From Cyclobacteriaceae bacterium (GTDB lineage Bacteria > Bacteroidota > Bacteroidia > Cytophagales > Cyclobacteriaceae): DNA of 64,000 nt. Location of the stretch: NCBI GenBank assembly GCA_965215825.1, contig CBDCEM010000002.1:1614504-1678503 (forward strand), in the 5' to 3' direction. The translations under genes were made by a program, and so were the position numbers. Shown here one piece after another: positions 29,001 to 34,233 of this stretch (position 1 is its first letter; each line of letters opens with the position of its first letter). Below the pieces are notes generated by a model. It was given only the letters and a program-made list of their open reading frames with translations, was not told the origin of the DNA and searched no databases.

Positions 29001-30455
29001 TTAGTCTACCTCTCCAAAATTTTTGTTACCGCACATCCTTACCACTTTCGGAGTAAAGGTGCCGACGACTTCAACAAGGCTTTCTTGTCTTGACATCACT
29101 TCATGGATATTTTTATACACCATGGGAGCTTCGTCTAGTCCGGAACCGATTAGTTCGATTCCAGCTTTTTTCAGATGTTGATCCACTTCCCACTTAGATA
29201 GAGTTTCCTTCGCGCGTCTTCGTGACATCAACCTGCCTGCGCCATGAGAGGCGGAATTGATAGATGCCATTTCTCCTTTTCCACGGACGATGAACCCCGG
29301 AGAAGTCATGGATCCCGGAATAACTCCTAGTACACCTTTCCCTGCCGGAGTAGCGCCTTTTCGATGAACAATGATCTCATCACCTTCTTCATCTTTCTCT
29401 TTCCACGCGAAATTGTGATGGTTTTCGATCATTGCCAGAGCCCTGCTTCCCAGAGATTTCGCCATTCTGTTATGAATATCATGATGACAAGCTGAGGCAT
29501 AATCTCCTGCCAGATTCATAGCTGCCCAATATTCCTGTCCATTTTCAGCATCCAGGCTCAGCCAGGCGAGGTGTTTTGCGGCTGGGGGAAGAGACCGTGA
29601 ATCCATGGCCAATTTGGTGTAATGCCGGGCGATGTTAGCACCCAATCCTCGAGAACCCGAATGAGTTAAAACAGATAAATACCTGCCTTTCGGTAGGCTC
29701 CATTCATTGTTTTCCTCCAGAATTTCAGCAGTCCCAAATTCCACAAAGTGATTGCCACCTCCTGAAGACCCGATTTGCTTTTGCGCTCGATCTTTCAATC
29801 CTTTTAAGATGTTGATTTCGCCAAAGAGGTCCCGATGCAGTACTTCATGATCCATAGTTCGTTCGAAAGCGGCATTCCCGAAACGCGTATTATCGATCAG
29901 CATTTTCTTCATGCGATCTGTATGAGTTCGTTCGAATACGGCCGGTATATCATAGAGCGTCATACACATCCTGCACCCGATATCCACTCCTACTCCGTAG
30001 GGGATAACAGCATTTTTAGTGGCCAAAACTCCGCCTATGGGCAATCCGTAACCTTGATGTGCGTCAGGCATTAAAGCACCTGCTTCTGCAATAGGAAGTT
30101 TCATCGCGATTTCCATTTGATTGATAGCACCAGGCTCTATGCCATCAGCTCCATAAATGGCATAAGGGATTCTTTTTTTTCGTAGTTCCAGTTCATTTTT
30201 TGCTTCTTCCCTGATGAGCAAGCCTTTAGCAATAGTACCTAATGTTGTATGTTTCACGTAAAAGGCAGGTGTTTCTACCACTTTTTGCAGCAAAGACATT
30301 TTGAAGACCTTGCTTTTTCCTTTGTAATGCTCTCCCATCACCGACATGGCCACAGCTATGATCTTGCCTTCCGGATACCCCATGTTGCGCAATTGCTTGC
30401 CGGTTATTTTGTTCGATGACATGATTCTAAAGTTTATAAGTTCATTTCGTACCAC
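29001..30455 (-). CDS. rtcB: RNA 3'-phosphate/2',3'-cyclic-phosphate–5'-OH ligase RtcB
   Basis: 484 aa. It carries the RtcB hallmark metal and GMP-His blocks (…DIGCRMC…, …HSGSRGLG…, …NHHNFAW…, …SHGAGR…). Confidence 0.9.
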   Translation of the reverse strand: MVRNELINFRIMSSNKITGKQLRNMGYPEGKIIAVAMSVMGEHYKGKSKVFKMSLLQKVVETPAFYVKHTTLGTIAKGLLIREEAKNELELRKKRIPYAIYGADGIEPGAINQMEIAMKLPIAEAGALMPDAHQGYGLPIGGVLATKNAVIPYGVGVDIGCRMCMTLYDIPAVFERTHTDRMKKMLIDNTRFGNAAFERTMDHEVLHRDLFGEINILKGLKDRAQKQIGSSGGGNHFVEFGTAEILEENNEWSLPKGRYLSVLTHSGSRGLGANIARHYTKLAMDSRSLPPAAKHLAWLSLDAENGQEYWAAMNLAGDYASACHHDIHNRMAKSLGSRALAMIENHHNFAWKEKDEEGDEIIVHRKGATPAGKGVLGVIPGSMTSPGFIVRGKGEMASINSASHGAGRLMSRRRAKETLSKWEVDQHLKKAGIELIGSGLDEAPMVYKNIHEVMSRQESLVEVVGTFTPKVVRMCGNKNFGEVD

Positions 30456-31390
30456 CTCAAAGTTTTATTTCTAAGGCGTTTTTTCAAGAGCTTCTCTTTT
30501 CTGAGAAAGTAGGGAGCTTCATCAGTTTCCTGAAATCCAAATTTCTTTGGAAGCTTTTTATAGAGAGATTTTGGAGGTCTGCTAAATGCCTTGTCAAGCC
30601 CTTTCAAAAGGCAACCCGTATCATAGGTATGATAGTAGATCCTGTTGCAGCCCAATTCATTGATCAGAAACATCAAACTGGCGTCCAGCACAGCTTCATC
30701 CCAGAGTTTGAAATACGCTGAAAGACATTCTTCAAAATAGATGAGAAAGTTTCGTAAGCTCCCATTTCCCCACCATACTTCTTCTTGCTTCTTTTTACTG
30801 ATTTTGATTTCTTTATGAGCTTCTTCGGCTTCATCATTGGCCTCCCTCAGCCAGTCTGTCTGAATTTCCTCAATCAGTGCTTCTCCTGTATCCAGGTCCA
30901 AATCAATTCGAGCCCAAGCCATCGTAAACCCTCCGCCTATTTTTATAGGGTGATCTTCATAGATAAATGGATGATAACCTTTGTCTGGCTTCAGGTATTG
31001 GAAGTACGCATTATTATGCGCGAAATCGAAATTTAGCTGCAATACCAGATTGATGCCTGATCGTGATGTCTGATACCAATTGTCGTTGCGATGTTTCATG
31101 TACTTACCCCACGTATCGATGGTATAATTGAAGAATTTACTGCTTTTAGTTACCTGATTTGAAAACAGGCTTGAAACCAGTTTGCTGCTGCCATGTTTTG
31201 CCATTACTTCTTTAATCATAGGTTTTTGAAGTAAATGACCGAATGGCGATTTCCTGACGGTTGTTACATCTTTCTCTTGATTAGTATAAAGTGAGAGTAA
31301 GTCAAAAGCATATTGGTCTTTGTGATAAGCAAATCCCTTTCCTTCTGTTTCTATGGTTTTTAGAATAAAGTCTACTTCTATAGGTGTCAT
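30434..31390 (-). CDS. Hypothetical protein, likely co-transcribed with rtcB
   Basis: 318-aa ORF whose end overlaps the rtcB start by 22 nt. No motif recognised by eye. A K-rich C-terminus. Confidence 0.5.
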   Translation of the reverse strand: MTPIEVDFILKTIETEGKGFAYHKDQYAFDLLSLYTNQEKDVTTVRKSPFGHLLQKPMIKEVMAKHGSSKLVSSLFSNQVTKSSKFFNYTIDTWGKYMKHRNDNWYQTSRSGINLVLQLNFDFAHNNAYFQYLKPDKGYHPFIYEDHPIKIGGGFTMAWARIDLDLDTGEALIEEIQTDWLREANDEAEEAHKEIKISKKKQEEVWWGNGSLRNFLIYFEECLSAYFKLWDEAVLDASLMFLINELGCNRIYYHTYDTGCLLKGLDKAFSRPPKSLYKKLPKKFGFQETDEAPYFLRKEKLLKKRLRNKTLRWYEMNL

Positions 31391-31442
31391 GATTTCTCAT
31401 GGAAATAGAGATGGGTAGACCAACCATCTATATCAGATTGGT

Positions 31443-32558
31443 CTACCTGTTGATGAAAATCTCTCGAAGCTGATCGATCATCTGGCCGTTTCCAGCGACG
31501 GTGATTTCTCCTACCTTGTCGGCGATTTTCTCAACATATTCCATCTCTTTCAGTTTGAACAACATCTCGTTCTCCTCCATCAATTTGGCGGTGTTGAGCA
31601 AGCTTCTGGTAGAAGCCGTTTCTTCACGTCTCATGATGACATTGGCTTGTGCCTGTTTCTGGGCCATCAATACCTGGTTCATGATTTCCTTCATGTCTCC
31701 GGGTAAAATGATGTCCTTCACACCACAATCAATGATTCTTACGCCAAGTGCCGCTGCTTTTTTGCTCACCCTATCCAGAACAGATTCGCCCAGCTCCTCT
31801 TTTTTCTCAAGGAGCTCATCCAAAGTATGAGTGCCTGCAAATTCACGAAGTGCGATTTGCATTGTTGTATACAATTGGAGTGCGTAATTCTTGTTCTCGA
31901 CCAGAGCTTTCTGCACATCGACAACCTGGTAGTTTCCCAGGAAGTTGACCCGAATAGCCGCTTTGTCTTTAGTAAGAATCTCCTGACCCAGTACCTCAGC
32001 CTGGGTTTGCCTCATATCCACTGTATCCAGGGTTATGGTCTGTGTGTTTTTCCAGAAGTGATAGGTGCCGCTACCAAGCATTTTCTCAAAGCGACCATTG
32101 ACATACAATACACCACGCTCGTAGGGTTGTACGGCAAAGGTTCGCACATAAGGAATTAATGCCTGACGGTTAAGAATGCTGACATCAATAGGCTCCGTTA
32201 TCTCAATTTTCCTGAGATCTACGGCCAGAAATGCATATTCCTTAACACCTTTCCAGTATGCATATTGTCCCGGAGGTAAGACCTTGGTAAAACGTCCATC
32301 TTCATATTTCAGGACGATTTCATGATCTTTTACATCCGCGACGACCAGTTCCTGTTTCAATTGCGTGTCTCGCAATAAGATGTTCAGGTCCTGATTGGTC
32401 TTGCCGTCAGCCTTCGGTTGGAAAGGCAGGTCCCGGTCGTAAATGACCACACTTTCGAAGGGAGTCACCCAATGGACCCCTTCCATGATCAAGCGATTGT
32501 AATCTCCTCTCCTGAAGACGAGACCGACTTTTCCGACATTGATTCTGACTCTTTTCAT
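31443..32558 (-). CDS. SPFH/slipin-family protein lacking an N-terminal TM anchor, with an extra N-terminal beta domain
   Basis: The C-terminal 200 aa are stomatin/SPFH-like (…AIRVNFLGNYQVVDVQKALVENKNYALQLYTTMQIALREFAGTHTLDELLEKKEELG…RIIDCGVKDIILPGDMKEIMNQVLMAQKQAQANVIMRREETAS…). No hydrophobic anchor is visible. Confidence 0.6.
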   Translation of the reverse strand: MKRVRINVGKVGLVFRRGDYNRLIMEGVHWVTPFESVVIYDRDLPFQPKADGKTNQDLNILLRDTQLKQELVVADVKDHEIVLKYEDGRFTKVLPPGQYAYWKGVKEYAFLAVDLRKIEITEPIDVSILNRQALIPYVRTFAVQPYERGVLYVNGRFEKMLGSGTYHFWKNTQTITLDTVDMRQTQAEVLGQEILTKDKAAIRVNFLGNYQVVDVQKALVENKNYALQLYTTMQIALREFAGTHTLDELLEKKEELGESVLDRVSKKAAALGVRIIDCGVKDIILPGDMKEIMNQVLMAQKQAQANVIMRREETASTRSLLNTAKLMEENEMLFKLKEMEYVEKIADKVGEITVAGNGQMIDQLREIFINR

Positions 32559-32966
32559 TGTTCTAAATATTTACGATCACTAAAAAATTCTTTTTCGATA
32601 AAGCAAGGCCGCTCATAACCACGCCGGGTCTGCGGAGCATTGATTGAGTAAATCCACCTCCCCAGAGTTTGCCACTGGATCAACATGTTTTGTCCGGACC
32701 AACGTCTGAACATACCATGTATCTTTAAATGGCAAAGCCTGAGAATTGAGCTTTACGGTATCCTCAACACCCGGCCTATCTGACGCTCTCCTGTTCAGGA
32801 TCGAAATCCGGAACTTTGGGTCATGACAGGCCCTGCTTTTGTTAATAAATGGCACCCATTTTTATAGAAGGTTGGATGACTTCTACTCTAATGCATAGAG
32901 TTTCCCTTTTTCAAAGAGAGAGCAGGTTATTAGCCTGCGAGACCGTTGCCTTATCCAATTAGGCGA

Positions 32967-33004
32967 CTGATGCATACATCAGGAGGGACTCGAACCCCCA
33001 ATCC
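32967..33004 (-). other. tRNA 3'-half-like element (canonical T-arm GGGGG-TTCGAGT-CCCTC plus an acceptor-like 3' strand) with an adjacent CTGATG/CATCAG hairpin. No anticodon or D arm.
   Basis: Read directly from the sequence. The T-loop consensus T54T55C56R57A58 is present. No complementary 5' acceptor strand was found within 120 nt. Confidence 0.4.
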
Positions 33005-33112
33005 ACAGTTAAAGTGATCTATCGTCCGATCTGTCAGCATATCCTAACTCTACTGGTCGGACACTATGGTGCTATACAGAAACACACATGTTGTCATCAC
33101 TTCCGAATAAAT

Positions 33113-33139
33113 CGCCTCTCTCCCCAGATTCGAACTGGG
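33113..33139 (-). other. Second tRNA 3'-half-like element (T-arm CCCAG-TTCGAAT-CTGGG plus GAGAGAG)
   Basis: Canonical T-arm. No anticodon arm or 5' acceptor partner could be built. Confidence 0.35.
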
Positions 33140-33335
33140 ACCTCCTTTGGTAAGGGTTAGCCTGGCTCTAAATGCGCTTCCCTACTAAACTTCATTCGAG
33201 TGGTTTTTCGGTGCTTCTGCAAATTCTATTCATCAATGCGCGAAGCTTTGACAACTTCATCCAGGCAGTACACGGTTACGTTCAAAAGACTTTTACCGCA
33301 GCACTTCCTTTTGTGCTAGAGAGAGTTATAAATCG

Positions 33336-33409
33336 TATGTCTGAAAGGATTCGAACCTTCAACTCCCGTGTTAAAAGCACGGTACTCAGCCAATTTGAGC
33401 TACAGACAT
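33336..33409 (-). tRNA. tRNA-Lys (anticodon UUU), CCA not encoded, with an unusual A1:U72 first acceptor pair
   Basis: Minus-sense fold: ATGTCTG-TA-GCTC-AAATTGGCT-GAGT-A-CCGTG-CTTTTAA-CACGG-GAGTT-GAAGG-TTCGAAT-CCTTT-CAGACAT-A. All arms pair. U8, G18G19, U33, A37 and T54-C56 are present. Confidence 0.65.
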
Positions 33410-33456
33410 AATTATCGAGAGGCCTCTCGATGACTTTCATTTGGTTTGGAAGGTGC

Positions 33457-33482
33457 CTGCCCGGTGGCTGTGCACCGGGCAG
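33457..33482. other. Perfect 10-bp stem / 6-nt loop hairpin (CTGCCCGGTG-GCTGTG-CACCGGGCAG)
   Basis: Seen directly. In minus sense it lies about 45 nt upstream of tRNA-Lys. Confidence 0.5.
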
Positions 33483-33710
33483 ATTCATGAGCTATACGTT
33501 CATGCCCTTCCCAAAAGGCTAGGTTTAGGTCGATAGTTGTTTTGTTTTGGTTTATAAACCAGCCTTTACCCCTCTCGAATGGAGCTTTATCAAACATCAC
33601 CAGGCAAACGGAACCTGACTTGTGGTCTCTAACCACTCTCCAAACTCAGAGGAAGCACCCGTTCTGCACTTCCTGCCGGGTATGTACTTATTAATAAAAC
33701 AAGTACATCG

Positions 33711-33758
33711 TCAACTTGCCAGGAGTCGAACCTGGTTTTGCACCTTAAGCACAAGTCG
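33711..33758 (-). ncRNA. 48-nt tRNA-like minihelix: a 7-bp acceptor stem (one G-U) directly joined to a canonical T-arm, with a 16-nt connector and no D or anticodon arms
   Basis: Minus sense: CGACTTG-TGCTTAAGGTGCAAAA-CCAGG-TTCGACT-CCTGG-CAAGTTG-A. The acceptor strands are complementary (G-U at position 2). The discriminator is A. Confidence 0.4.
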
Positions 33759-33773
33759 AAAAAAATATGGATC

Positions 33774-33806
33774 AAAAAAAGCCCCGTTCACAGGAATGAA
33801 CGGGGC
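33774..33806 (-). terminator. Rho-independent terminator (GCCCCGTTCA-TTCCTG-TGAACGGGGC then T7) on the minus strand
   Basis: Perfect 10-bp stem followed by TTTTTTTGAT in minus sense. In minus sense it sits between the dipeptidase gene and the tRNA-like cluster. Confidence 0.6.
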
Positions 33807-34233
33807 TCAAATGCTTTAGCAATTGACCGAAATCATTCCTTGTGTATCCAATAAGATCCCATTGCCGGAAGGGCATAACTCTCCTGAGTTGAAAATTCTC
33901 CCAACAGAATATTATTTGGCTTCACATTTATTTTGTCCAATTTCATTGAAAACAAAAAACCCAGGCTTTTGACCTGGGTTTCATCTATCTACAGTTCGTA
34001 AATTCAACTATTACCAGGCCAGTACCTCCATAAATCACAACCAAACCCTACTTCTCCGAGGGGGTTGCTTAGCGATATGTGTGTGTACTTTCTCAATTCA
34101 TTTTTCTTTTGTTGTTGCAAGTATCGAACAATCAATTCTAAAAACCAAATAATATTCTATTTTTTGCGAGAAAATCGAATTCTTAAGTTCTGCCGTACTA
34201 GCTGATTCCATGTAAAGAATAATGCTTAATCCG

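Follow-up and report, generated by a model that had tools for sequence, protein, structure and literature searches.

In the Rsr(Ro60)-YrlA/YrlB-RtcB/RtcA operon of Salmonella and other bacteria (Chen et al. 2013, 2014; Hughes et al. 2020), the gene of the ligase RtcB stands beside YrlA, a tRNA mimic that is a substrate of tRNA-modifying enzymes and that, in M. smegmatis, is cleaved by RNase P in vitro and has CCA added in vivo (PMC4201824). A second association was predicted by Burroughs and Aravind (Nucleic Acids Res 2016, 44:8525), who, according to Wang et al. (bioRxiv 10.1101/312249), placed RtcB beside a Band-7 protein and a tRNA-like “b7a-tRNA”; the preprint describes the b7a-tRNA as an RNA closely similar to a genuine tRNA, reports that YrlA occasionally lies beside Band-7, and presents the SPFH/Band-7-RtcB-tRNA-like system as a prediction without experimental validation. 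In P. aeruginosa, an SPFH gene is located inside the rtc locus (PMC13086221). The targets of bacterial RtcB and the reason for its association with tRNA mimics have been open questions since the Ro60/Y-RNA/RtcB operons were found, and the SPFH branch has only been predicted. Here we describe a locus from a stretch of 64,000 nucleotides of a Cyclobacteriaceae bacterium (GenBank assembly GCA_965215825.1, contig CBDCEM010000002.1, positions 1,614,504 to 1,678,503 of the forward strand; hereafter the window), in which rtcB, a gene for a 318-aa protein without family annotation (U318), and a gene for an SPFH/Band-7 protein are preceded by a cassette of tRNA-derived RNAs. From comparisons of sequence, we consider it likely that the locus is an SPFH-type RtcB RNA-repair module in which cognate tRNA-mimic RNAs serve as trans-acting partners.

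A sequence-only reading of the window had raised two possibilities for this region, an RNA-repair/tRNA-mimic module or the scar of mobile elements that integrated at tRNA 3′ ends. The former is supported by synteny, by matches to the YrlA model, by covariation, and by the retrieval of the RNAs together with Band-7 and RtcB from metagenomes. The cassette and the genes for SPFH (window positions 31443-32558), U318 (30434-31390), and RtcB (29001-30455) are all co-oriented on the minus strand, with the SPFH gene 1 kb upstream of RtcB, and the 1.7 kb that separate the SPFH start (32558) from the next gene (34234) are free of conserved open reading frames (ORFs). Three orphan T-arms with 5-bp stems and UUCGANU loops lie there on the same strand (33735-33719, 33139-33123, and 32999-32983), and acceptor-like strands match each of them. 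The earlier description of three such elements lacking an anticodon arm stands for the T-arms, for the acceptor-like strands, and for the first element (A), but had to be revised for the other two: in RNA B the arm is replaced by a large domain, and RNA C is circularly permuted. The strong hairpins that had been pointed out are also present, two of them being strong intrinsic terminators (33982-33956 and 33808-33779), and the stretch 33830-33560 folds with z = −5.1. On the terminator map, the interval from 33779 to the end of rtcB is free of strong terminators; the promoter scan used a sigma-70-type consensus, which is not applicable to Bacteroidota.

Related loci, designated by L numbers, comprise 80 loci from an alignment-seeded scan of one genome per species, three close relatives (L081-L083), and later-numbered loci from metagenomes. 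The cassette, Band-7, U318, and RtcB are syntenic in the three close relatives, all Cytophagales genomes; L082 and L083 share both flanks of the window (an M19 dipeptidase gene upstream and a GSDH-like gene downstream) and L081 shares the operon. The 830 nt upstream of tRNA-Lys have a mean column identity of 75% with long invariant blocks, and U318 is 67-73% identical in these loci; judged by these alignments, conservation is higher in the non-coding region than in the neighbouring proteins. In the wider set, RtcB adjoins U318 in 41 of the 80 loci, spread over several phyla, and Band-7 is present in about 17. Within the 4.5 kb upstream of U318, 66 tRNAs are co-oriented with it and the opposite strand has none (84 sequences, i.e., 83 related loci and the window); such same-strand tRNAs occur in 15 of the 19 loci with Band-7 versus 10 of the 65 without it, and are most commonly Tyr(GUA), Lys(UUU), and Phe(GAA), with Asp, Leu, Asn, and Gln also represented. 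The synteny and covariance check that had been suggested for the module thus came out in its favour, as relatives hold the cassette beside rtcB and RNAs B and C covary beyond their shuffled controls.

The linkage was recovered independently of the proteins by a metagenome scan seeded solely with a 19-nt motif of RNA B, which returned 55 stretches, 15 of them with full-length B (70-160 bits). Among the B loci that include downstream sequence, Band-7 follows on the same strand in seven (L084, L089, L091, L092, L093, L109, and L123), four of which also have RtcB; U318 lies downstream of B in L112, and Ro60 lies upstream of B in L099, each on the same strand as B. In metagenome loci, a YrlA-like unit is found ~200 nt past B, between B and Band-7. 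Viral contigs yielded matches to the RNA B motif that were limited to the seed. The RNAs and the genes are inherited together. In four of the metagenome loci (L084, L089, L091, and L093), which have B, the YrlA-like unit, Band-7, and RtcB, no U318 stands between the last two; the core of RNAs, Band-7, and RtcB can therefore do without U318.

RNA B (33114-33325, 212 nt) is a tRNA-like RNA that begins 9 nt past tRNA-Lys and consists of a 7-bp acceptor stem (CUCUCUC/GAGAGAG), a D-arm, a short variable hairpin, the T-arm at 33139-33123, and, in place of the anticodon arm, a conserved multi-helix domain of ~130 nt, in which the motifs GCGGUAAAA, AAUAG, GCACCGAA, and AGUAGGGAAGCG are invariant or nearly so. 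It is conserved in L081, L083, L038, and L007 in addition to the 15 metagenome loci. An alignment of 17 sequences revealed compensatory changes in 7 of 7 acceptor pairs, where the stem closes across ~200 nt, and in 4 of 4 pairs of the T-stem; 96.6% of cells are paired, and the covariation score of 0.513 compares with 0.239 in shuffled alignments (0/500) and 0.06-0.14 in controls with slid partners. The D-arm was left out of this scoring, as in some subgroups MAFFT places it one column off. RNA B is without a threshold-level match in Rfam 15, and the only overlap, a YrlA alignment of 16 bits (E = 6.4), is at chance level. The RNA was called by ARAGORN in intron mode, which in ~1 Mb of sequence from the 83 loci made seven “intron” calls, all seven on the operon strand and inside arrays. 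A tRNA with a true intron was rejected, since no part of B is better conserved than the insert, the anticodons it would imply are not the same from genome to genome, and there is no match to a group I or II intron. Some homologues have extra hairpin insertions, one in the T-arm region and one in the large domain (L123 2518-2758 and L099 8175-8462), and the scaffold of RNA B seems to tolerate expansion.

The tRNA-Lys(UUU) (33335-33409) is the only tRNA that ARAGORN and Rfam call in the 1.7-kb region (59.3 bits against a threshold of 29). The sequence-only reading had singled it out as atypical, and it does have an A1:U72 pair, together with discriminator A, no encoded CCA, and a cloverleaf with a 7-nt anticodon loop. 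Its orthologues in L081 and L083 lie 9-10 nt upstream of B. The L082 orthologue (L082 3153-3251) retains the acceptor, D, and T arms, and a 27-nt insertion turns the anticodon arm into a long branched helix with no 7-nt loop. Because the anticodon loop has been lost there, the comparison hints that decoding may not be the conserved role of this element.

RNA C (33110-32855, minus strand) opens with a conserved structured 5′ domain (33021-33110), situated between B and the YrlA-like unit, that contains GGAUAUGCUGAC and is also found by nhmmer in L003, L005, L002, L038, and metagenome loci. The domain is followed by unit 1 (32942-33009), a circularly permuted tRNA domain in the order closing helix (ACUGU/ACGGU), T-arm (32999-32983), closed acceptor hairpin (32982-32967), and D-arm (32964-32948); the minimum free energy fold has the same four helices. 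Unit 1 aligns to positions 24-84 of the Rfam YrlA model (RF02553), leaving model positions 1-23 and 85-114 unaligned, with a score of 34.2 bits (E 3.6e-5), below the gathering score of 69 bits. YrlA matches occur at the equivalent place in nine of nine close loci, all of them sub-threshold (28-46 bits in the relatives). In the nine-locus MAFFT alignment, pairing extends to 97.7% of cells, compensatory changes occur in 17 of 19 pairs, and the covariation score is 0.851 versus 0.344 for shuffled alignments (0/500) and 0.12-0.24 for slid partners. Chen et al. (PMC4201824) caution that YrlA matches can also arise from tandem tRNAs, a caveat that does not apply to RNA C, because covariation extends to the closed acceptor hairpin and the closing helix. 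The single-sequence folding z-scores of B and C are unremarkable, so the support for their structures comes from covariation and not from folding energy.

The suggestion of a Y-RNA-like YrlA mimic failed as far as a full YrlA is concerned. RNA C has the T, acceptor-like, and D stem-loops and the closing helix of the YrlA tRNA-like domain. The Ro60-binding motif GNCGAA(N)G (GNCGAAN0-1G) is absent in either form from 32559-34233, as is the long Ro60-binding stem, there is no neighbouring Ro60 gene, and the Rfam score is sub-threshold, for which reasons RNA C should not be filed as YrlA. With three of the four tests for YrlA going against it, RNA C is, by its sequence features, not YrlA proper and resembles the tRNA-like half of YrlA. 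Unit 2 (32865-32938) is a second permuted tRNA-like unit that, in the window, has decayed to a T-like hairpin (32938-32922, loop CUAAUAA), a closed acceptor-like hairpin, a D-like hairpin, and a hairpin at 32885-32865, the T-loop consensus having been lost and a deletion of ~21 nt having taken out the anticodon arm. In L081-L083, the T-arm of unit 2 is canonical and is accompanied by a D-arm and an anticodon arm (the loop of the latter reads CUGUUAA in L082 and L083). From RNA C to the SPFH gene extends a conserved non-coding leader (32559-32854; nhmmer 128-141 bits to L081-L083), in which no open frame is common to all four loci and the small ORFs were accordingly rejected.

Upstream of tRNA-Lys, RNA R3 (33436-33760) is near-identical in the close relatives (264-270 bits to L081-L083) and opens with element A, which folds into a mini-tRNA (33759-33711) made up of an 8-bp acceptor stem, a D-like hairpin, and a T-arm, the anticodon arm being absent, and which aligns to the tRNA-Asp of L003 and L038 minus the anticodon arm. 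Element A is followed by a hairpin, a conserved three-way core (33681-33570), and a 3′ hairpin domain. The core is also present in at least 11 other loci (L002-L006, L008, L009, L038, L099, L108, and L109), compensatory changes were found by RNAalifold in 11 of its 23 predicted pairs, and it has no match in Rfam 15 even at E ≤ 10; outside the core, the four closest genomes are too alike for a structure test. Two further candidate small RNAs lie upstream of R3, neither with an Rfam family at threshold and both with only weak sub-threshold overlaps. Candidate 1 (33950-34160; 135-148 bits to L081-L083) has the terminator 33982-33956 at its end, an invariant promoter-like block, AAAATTAGAATATTATTTGG, and a putative 5′ end at ~34160, and it is also found upstream of the cassette in L009, L004, L008, and L038, including loci without Band-7. 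Candidate 2 (33775-33945; 95-103 bits) has the terminator 33808-33779 at its end and is conserved in L081-L083 only; its membership in the module is uncertain.

The RtcB protein (Pfam RtcB, E 5.7e-78; PHROG tRNA splicing ligase, E 2.6e-93) is apparently intact, given that the metal-binding and His-GMP motifs DAHQGYG, DIGC, GGGNHF, HSGSRG, NHHNF, and SASHGAGR are readable in its translation. The rtcB ORF is listed from a GTG at 30455, and the alternative ATG at 30422 yields a protein of 473 aa; since the RtcB of relatives is also 473 aa long, and given the start-codon context, the ATG is most likely the start. On this start rtcB would open 11 nt past the U318 stop and would not overlap the 318-aa ORF. 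The protein has an N-terminal extension of ~100 residues (1-105), the Pfam domain beginning at residue 117, and this extension is common to the PHROG family phrog_1075, the match to which begins at residue 17. The SPFH/Band-7 protein (371 aa; Pfam Band_7, E 1.9e-34) has an N-terminal extension of ~140 aa and no hydrophobic segment (best 19-residue Kyte-Doolittle mean 1.27), in agreement with its earlier description as a slipin devoid of transmembrane segments. Orthologues with 59-67% identity occupy the equivalent position in L002, L003, L005, L009, L038, L081-L083, and metagenome loci.

U318 was called unannotatable from its translation, and so it proved: Pfam, NCBIfam, PADLOC, and PHROG provided no match, and its family profile has no sequence match in the Protein Data Bank (PDB). 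A search of the genome collection with the single U318 sequence returned zero matches, whereas the alignment-based search succeeded. At E ≤ 0.001 there are 999 homologues; among the 120 listed, none has a Pfam domain and all those named by their source are “hypothetical protein.” They stem from Bacteroidota, Balneolaceae, and Gamma- and Alphaproteobacteria, with Verrucomicrobiota and others added from the related genome loci. About 34 positions are invariant, including R110, N120, H125, H147, R161, E174, E175, Q177, D179, and K263. AlphaFold2, given 32 sequences, produced a confident model (pLDDT 89.6, pTM 0.91), and in a Foldseek search of the PDB with this model the 50 matches listed are GNAT acetyltransferases almost throughout (one is another GNAT-fold protein), none of them significant. 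The beta4-alpha3 loop reads QTDWLR, where the acetyl-CoA pyrophosphate loop of GNATs is expected to be Q/RxxGxG/A, and the protein carries an extra N-terminal helical domain and a basic C-terminal tail. On the strength of the confident model and the Foldseek list, and despite the nonsignificant matches and the divergent loop, we call U318 a divergent GNAT-like protein with a predicted core GNAT fold. Two other identities were considered and rejected: a Pol-beta-type nucleotidyltransferase, for which the alignment has no conserved DxD and the model no such fold match, and the TROVE/Ro60-like or nuclease fold that the sequence-only reading had proposed to look for, in place of which the model is GNAT-like. 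There are GNAT-fold enzymes that act on tRNA (the TacT/AtaT toxins, TmcA, Elp3, Fem, and L/F transferases); U318 has no sequence similarity to them and no Pfam GNAT match, and it differs from them by an unrecognisable acetyl-CoA pyrophosphate-binding loop and by the two added terminal regions.

The surroundings of U318 vary among the related loci. Ro60, U318, RtcB, Hen1, and Pnkp form an operon in L045 and L072, in which the co-occurrence of RtcB with Hen1/Pnkp implies two separate ligase systems in one operon, and L007 combines Ro60, tRNAs, U318, and RtcB. Upstream of the Ro60 operon, L045 (3313-3912) and L072 (320-912) have 4-5 tandem YrlA-like RNAs with full-length, sub-threshold alignments of 28-46 bits. 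Large same-strand tRNA arrays precede Band-7 and U318 in a gammaproteobacterial metagenome-assembled genome (MAG; L040 71-2954, 13 tRNAs), in Cerasicoccus frondis (L048 866-3463, 17 tRNAs), and in a Pseudomonadota MAG (L077 3207-5906, 10 tRNAs); odd members of these arrays include a 97-nt tRNA-Pro, a tRNA with a 2-nt “anticodon,” and a Phe(AAA). Extra genes stand between Band-7 and U318 in some loci, namely one for a PcfJ-like protein in L040 (4521-5963) and two in L003 (4684-5235 and 5287-5787); the extras of Cyclobacteriaceae encode a 183-aa protein without a family and a 166-aa TPR protein, and the window has none. In two Alphaproteobacteria (L021 and L035, ~6000), U318 is placed between guaB, a gene for an RsmB/F-like methyltransferase, and guaA, with no RtcB, Band-7, or tRNA nearby; this setting shows that the U318 family also has a housekeeping-looking context.

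On the side of rtcB, the window has genes for a GSDH-like protein and an M28 peptidase downstream, and for an M19 dipeptidase and a D-Ser-dehydratase-like protein upstream of the module (from translations, and from Pfam in the syntenic L082 and L083). Neither an RtcA cyclase nor an RtcR regulator was found adjoining rtcB, just as the sequence-only reading had stated. The 64-kb window contains no TROVE, Hen1, Pnkp, or TPR genes (TROVE was sought by tblastn with two TROVE proteins), and PADLOC returned zero matches to defence systems at the locus. The second possibility raised at the outset, a mobile-element scar or island at tRNA 3′ ends, was discarded. No att-like direct repeats of tRNA 3′ segments were found, the GC content is 0.40-0.48 throughout with no shift in composition, and U318 has no relatives in the viral contigs of IMG/VR, which together with the lack of a PADLOC match led us to reject it. 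Relatives moreover hold the cassette, and not an empty site, at the equivalent position, and in the tRNA-like elements both acceptor strands are present and covary. The module is a cellular one, encoded on the chromosome.

The “top half” of a tRNA, i.e., the acceptor stem, T-arm, and D-arm, is kept in every RNA of the cassette (A/R3, tRNA-Lys, B, and C), and the anticodon arm is missing in A, swapped for a large domain in B, and used as an entry/exit helix in C. In A, B, C, and the Lys-like RNA of L082, it is only the acceptor/T/D half that selection has maintained, which suggests the part of a tRNA that the proteins recognise. A module built on such RNAs might operate as follows. The RNAs and mRNAs would be made as a single transcript from a promoter just downstream of the terminator at 33779, and RNase P and RNase Z would cut at the ends of the tRNA and tRNA-like segments, freeing stable RNAs. 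By analogy with Ro60 and Y RNA, a soluble SPFH oligomer may serve as the scaffold that these RNAs load onto, where their tRNA-like elbows and acceptor ends could recruit broken tRNAs or tRNA-handling enzymes. RtcB would then reseal breaks with a 2′,3′-cyclic phosphate or 3′-phosphate and a 5′-OH, e.g., those left by anticodon nucleases, and U318 might be an accessory enzyme or an RNA-binding subunit at the acceptor end or the repair junction. We place much less confidence in any single one of these steps than in the module as a whole.

Several points weigh against the repair module with tRNA-mimic partners. We infer both the co-transcription and the processing by RNase P/Z, and the scaffold role of the SPFH protein is proposed by analogy; we know of no RNA-binding surface in SPFH domains. 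U318 departs from the canonical acetyl-CoA loop, and its Foldseek matches are nonsignificant. RNA content varies, in that B is absent from L082, L003, and L005 and unit 2 of C is decayed in the window, so that not every RNA can be essential. The tRNA-Lys(UUU) could be an ordinary decoding tRNA, the survey having covered 64 kb of the genome. A bolder and rather doubtful elaboration of the module is that the cassette encodes a new class of tRNA-derived ribonucleoprotein cofactors: B would be freed by RNase P/Z, CCA-tailed, and perhaps aminoacylated, with U318 acting on its acceptor end in the manner of aminoacyl-tRNA-dependent GNAT-fold transferases or tRNA acetyltransferases, and an SPFH cage of B and the Ro60-independent C would offer broken tRNAs to RtcB. 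If true, this would amount to a second, Ro60-independent “Y-RNA-like” repair particle with RNA families of its own.

Other explanations of the same arrangement give the RNAs a different part to play. They might form an array of spare or decoy tRNAs that replace or shield tRNAs hit by anticodon nucleases, with RtcB repairing the cuts, in which case the RNAs would be substrates or decoys and not cofactors of SPFH. Relatives do have as many as 13-17 genuine-looking tRNAs per locus (L040 and L048) upstream of Band-7 and U318, and the commonest of these array tRNAs, Tyr(GUA), Lys(UUU), Phe(GAA), Asp, Leu, Asn, and Gln, include known nuclease targets, PrrC cutting tRNA-Lys and colicin E5 the Tyr, Asn, and Asp tRNAs. 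In the window, however, a single element has a 7-nt anticodon loop; A, B, and unit 1 of C have none and therefore could not decoy an anticodon nuclease at its cleavage site, the L082 tRNA-Lys orthologue has lost this loop and kept the rest, and the conserved 130-nt domain of B would be superfluous in a spare tRNA, all of which makes this account unlikely. A still less probable idea turns the relationship around, such that the RNAs need RtcB to mature: the permuted units and the interrupted B would be split, permuted, or intron-bearing tRNA genes joined by RtcB, as in the permuted tRNAs of red algae and in archaeal tRNA splicing. RtcB is the tRNA-splicing ligase of archaea and animals (bioRxiv 10.1101/312249), unit 2 of C in relatives follows the order T-arm, closed acceptor, D-arm, and full anticodon arm (loops CUGUUAA or CUUUUAA), which is that of a permuted tRNA, and ARAGORN interprets B as a tRNA that bears 107-132 nt of inserted sequence. 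Conservation in B nevertheless peaks in this “intron,” and once it is removed the anticodons given by ARAGORN vary (Val, Leu, and Gly); no splicing endonuclease or bulge-helix-bulge motif was seen, unit 1 of C lacks an anticodon arm, and unit 2 in the window has lost its own.

It is equally improbable, in our estimate, that the RNAs act in cis, as tRNA-like structures in a long 5′ leader that sense the status of or damage to tRNAs and control the operon, standing in for the RtcR of proteobacteria. Such a leader would account for the lack of a strong terminator between the RNAs and the SPFH gene, for the 300 nt of conserved non-coding sequence directly before the SPFH start codon, and for the lack of an adjoining RtcR. 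Set against it, the acceptor stems of B and tRNA-Lys are complete and 9-10 nt separate the two, a spacing like that of tandem, separately processed tRNA genes, the RNAs lie at variable distances and other genes (TPR, Ro60) intervene before RtcB, and the YrlA RNAs studied experimentally act in trans (PMC4201824). Chance juxtaposition of rtcB with an ordinary tRNA-Lys, decaying tRNA pseudogenes, and integration scars has hardly any probability left. Unit 2 of C is indeed visibly decayed in the window, and RNA content differs among relatives, but compensatory changes maintain all helices of B and of unit 1 of C, the non-coding region outdoes the neighbouring proteins in conservation, the strand bias is 66 to 0, and B and C are recovered beside Band-7 and RtcB in unrelated metagenomes; the missing att repeats, the flat GC content, and the lack of an IMG/VR relative of U318 point the same way.

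Read as an SPFH-type repair module with tRNA-mimic partners, the locus offers a compact test case of three proteins and four to six RNAs that is conserved in Cytophagales and has parts distributed across phyla. RNA B and the Ro60-independent, YrlA-like RNA C combine strong covariation with the lack of an Rfam family at threshold and could become covariance models, and U318 adds a widespread, unannotated family to the candidate parts of the RtcB, Ro60, Band-7, and Pnkp/Hen1 repair systems. With the Pnkp-Hen1 system, the module shares the principle of a dedicated operon for healing and sealing broken RNA, and in L045 and L072 a single operon unites U318 and RtcB with both Hen1 and Pnkp; neither of the latter two is present in the window, and RtcB joins a 3′-phosphate or cyclic phosphate to a 5′-OH, which is a different ligation chemistry. 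RNA B recalls tmRNA in that it keeps an acceptor stem, a D-like element, and a T-arm, has a large domain in the place of the anticodon arm, and brings its 5′ and 3′ ends together in the acceptor stem. Unlike tmRNA, B matches no tmRNA model, has no tag reading frame, is only 212 nt long, carries other motifs (GCGGUAAAA, GCACCGAA, and AGUAGGGAAGCG), and is linked to Band-7/RtcB and not to smpB.

With the Ro60/YrlA/RtcB operon, the locus shares a tRNA mimic ordered T-arm, closed acceptor stem-loop, D-arm, and closed by a helix at the position of the anticodon stem, encoded beside RtcB, and homologues of U318 occur in loci of this kind (L007, L045, and L072). The window departs from it in having no Ro60 gene and no Ro60-binding motif or stem, a score of 34 bits against the 69 of the Rfam model, no adjoining RtcA or RtcR, and an SPFH protein in the position of the scaffold. 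RNA B, the R3 core, and U318 were not found described; the 2016 prediction is compared here by way of the preprint that cites it, and we do not claim novelty for them. Each tested feature of the predicted SPFH/Band-7-RtcB-tRNA-like system, as the citing preprint presents it, is found in the window: an RtcB ligase, a Band-7 protein in the cluster, and a co-oriented tRNA or tRNA-like RNA with conserved linkage. The likeness extends to the occasional YrlA-type RNA beside Band-7 and to a cellular distribution over several phyla. Relative to that prediction, as far as the preprint conveys it, the window replaces the one tRNA-like gene with a cassette of at least four different tRNA-derived RNAs and places a GNAT-like protein between Band-7 and RtcB.

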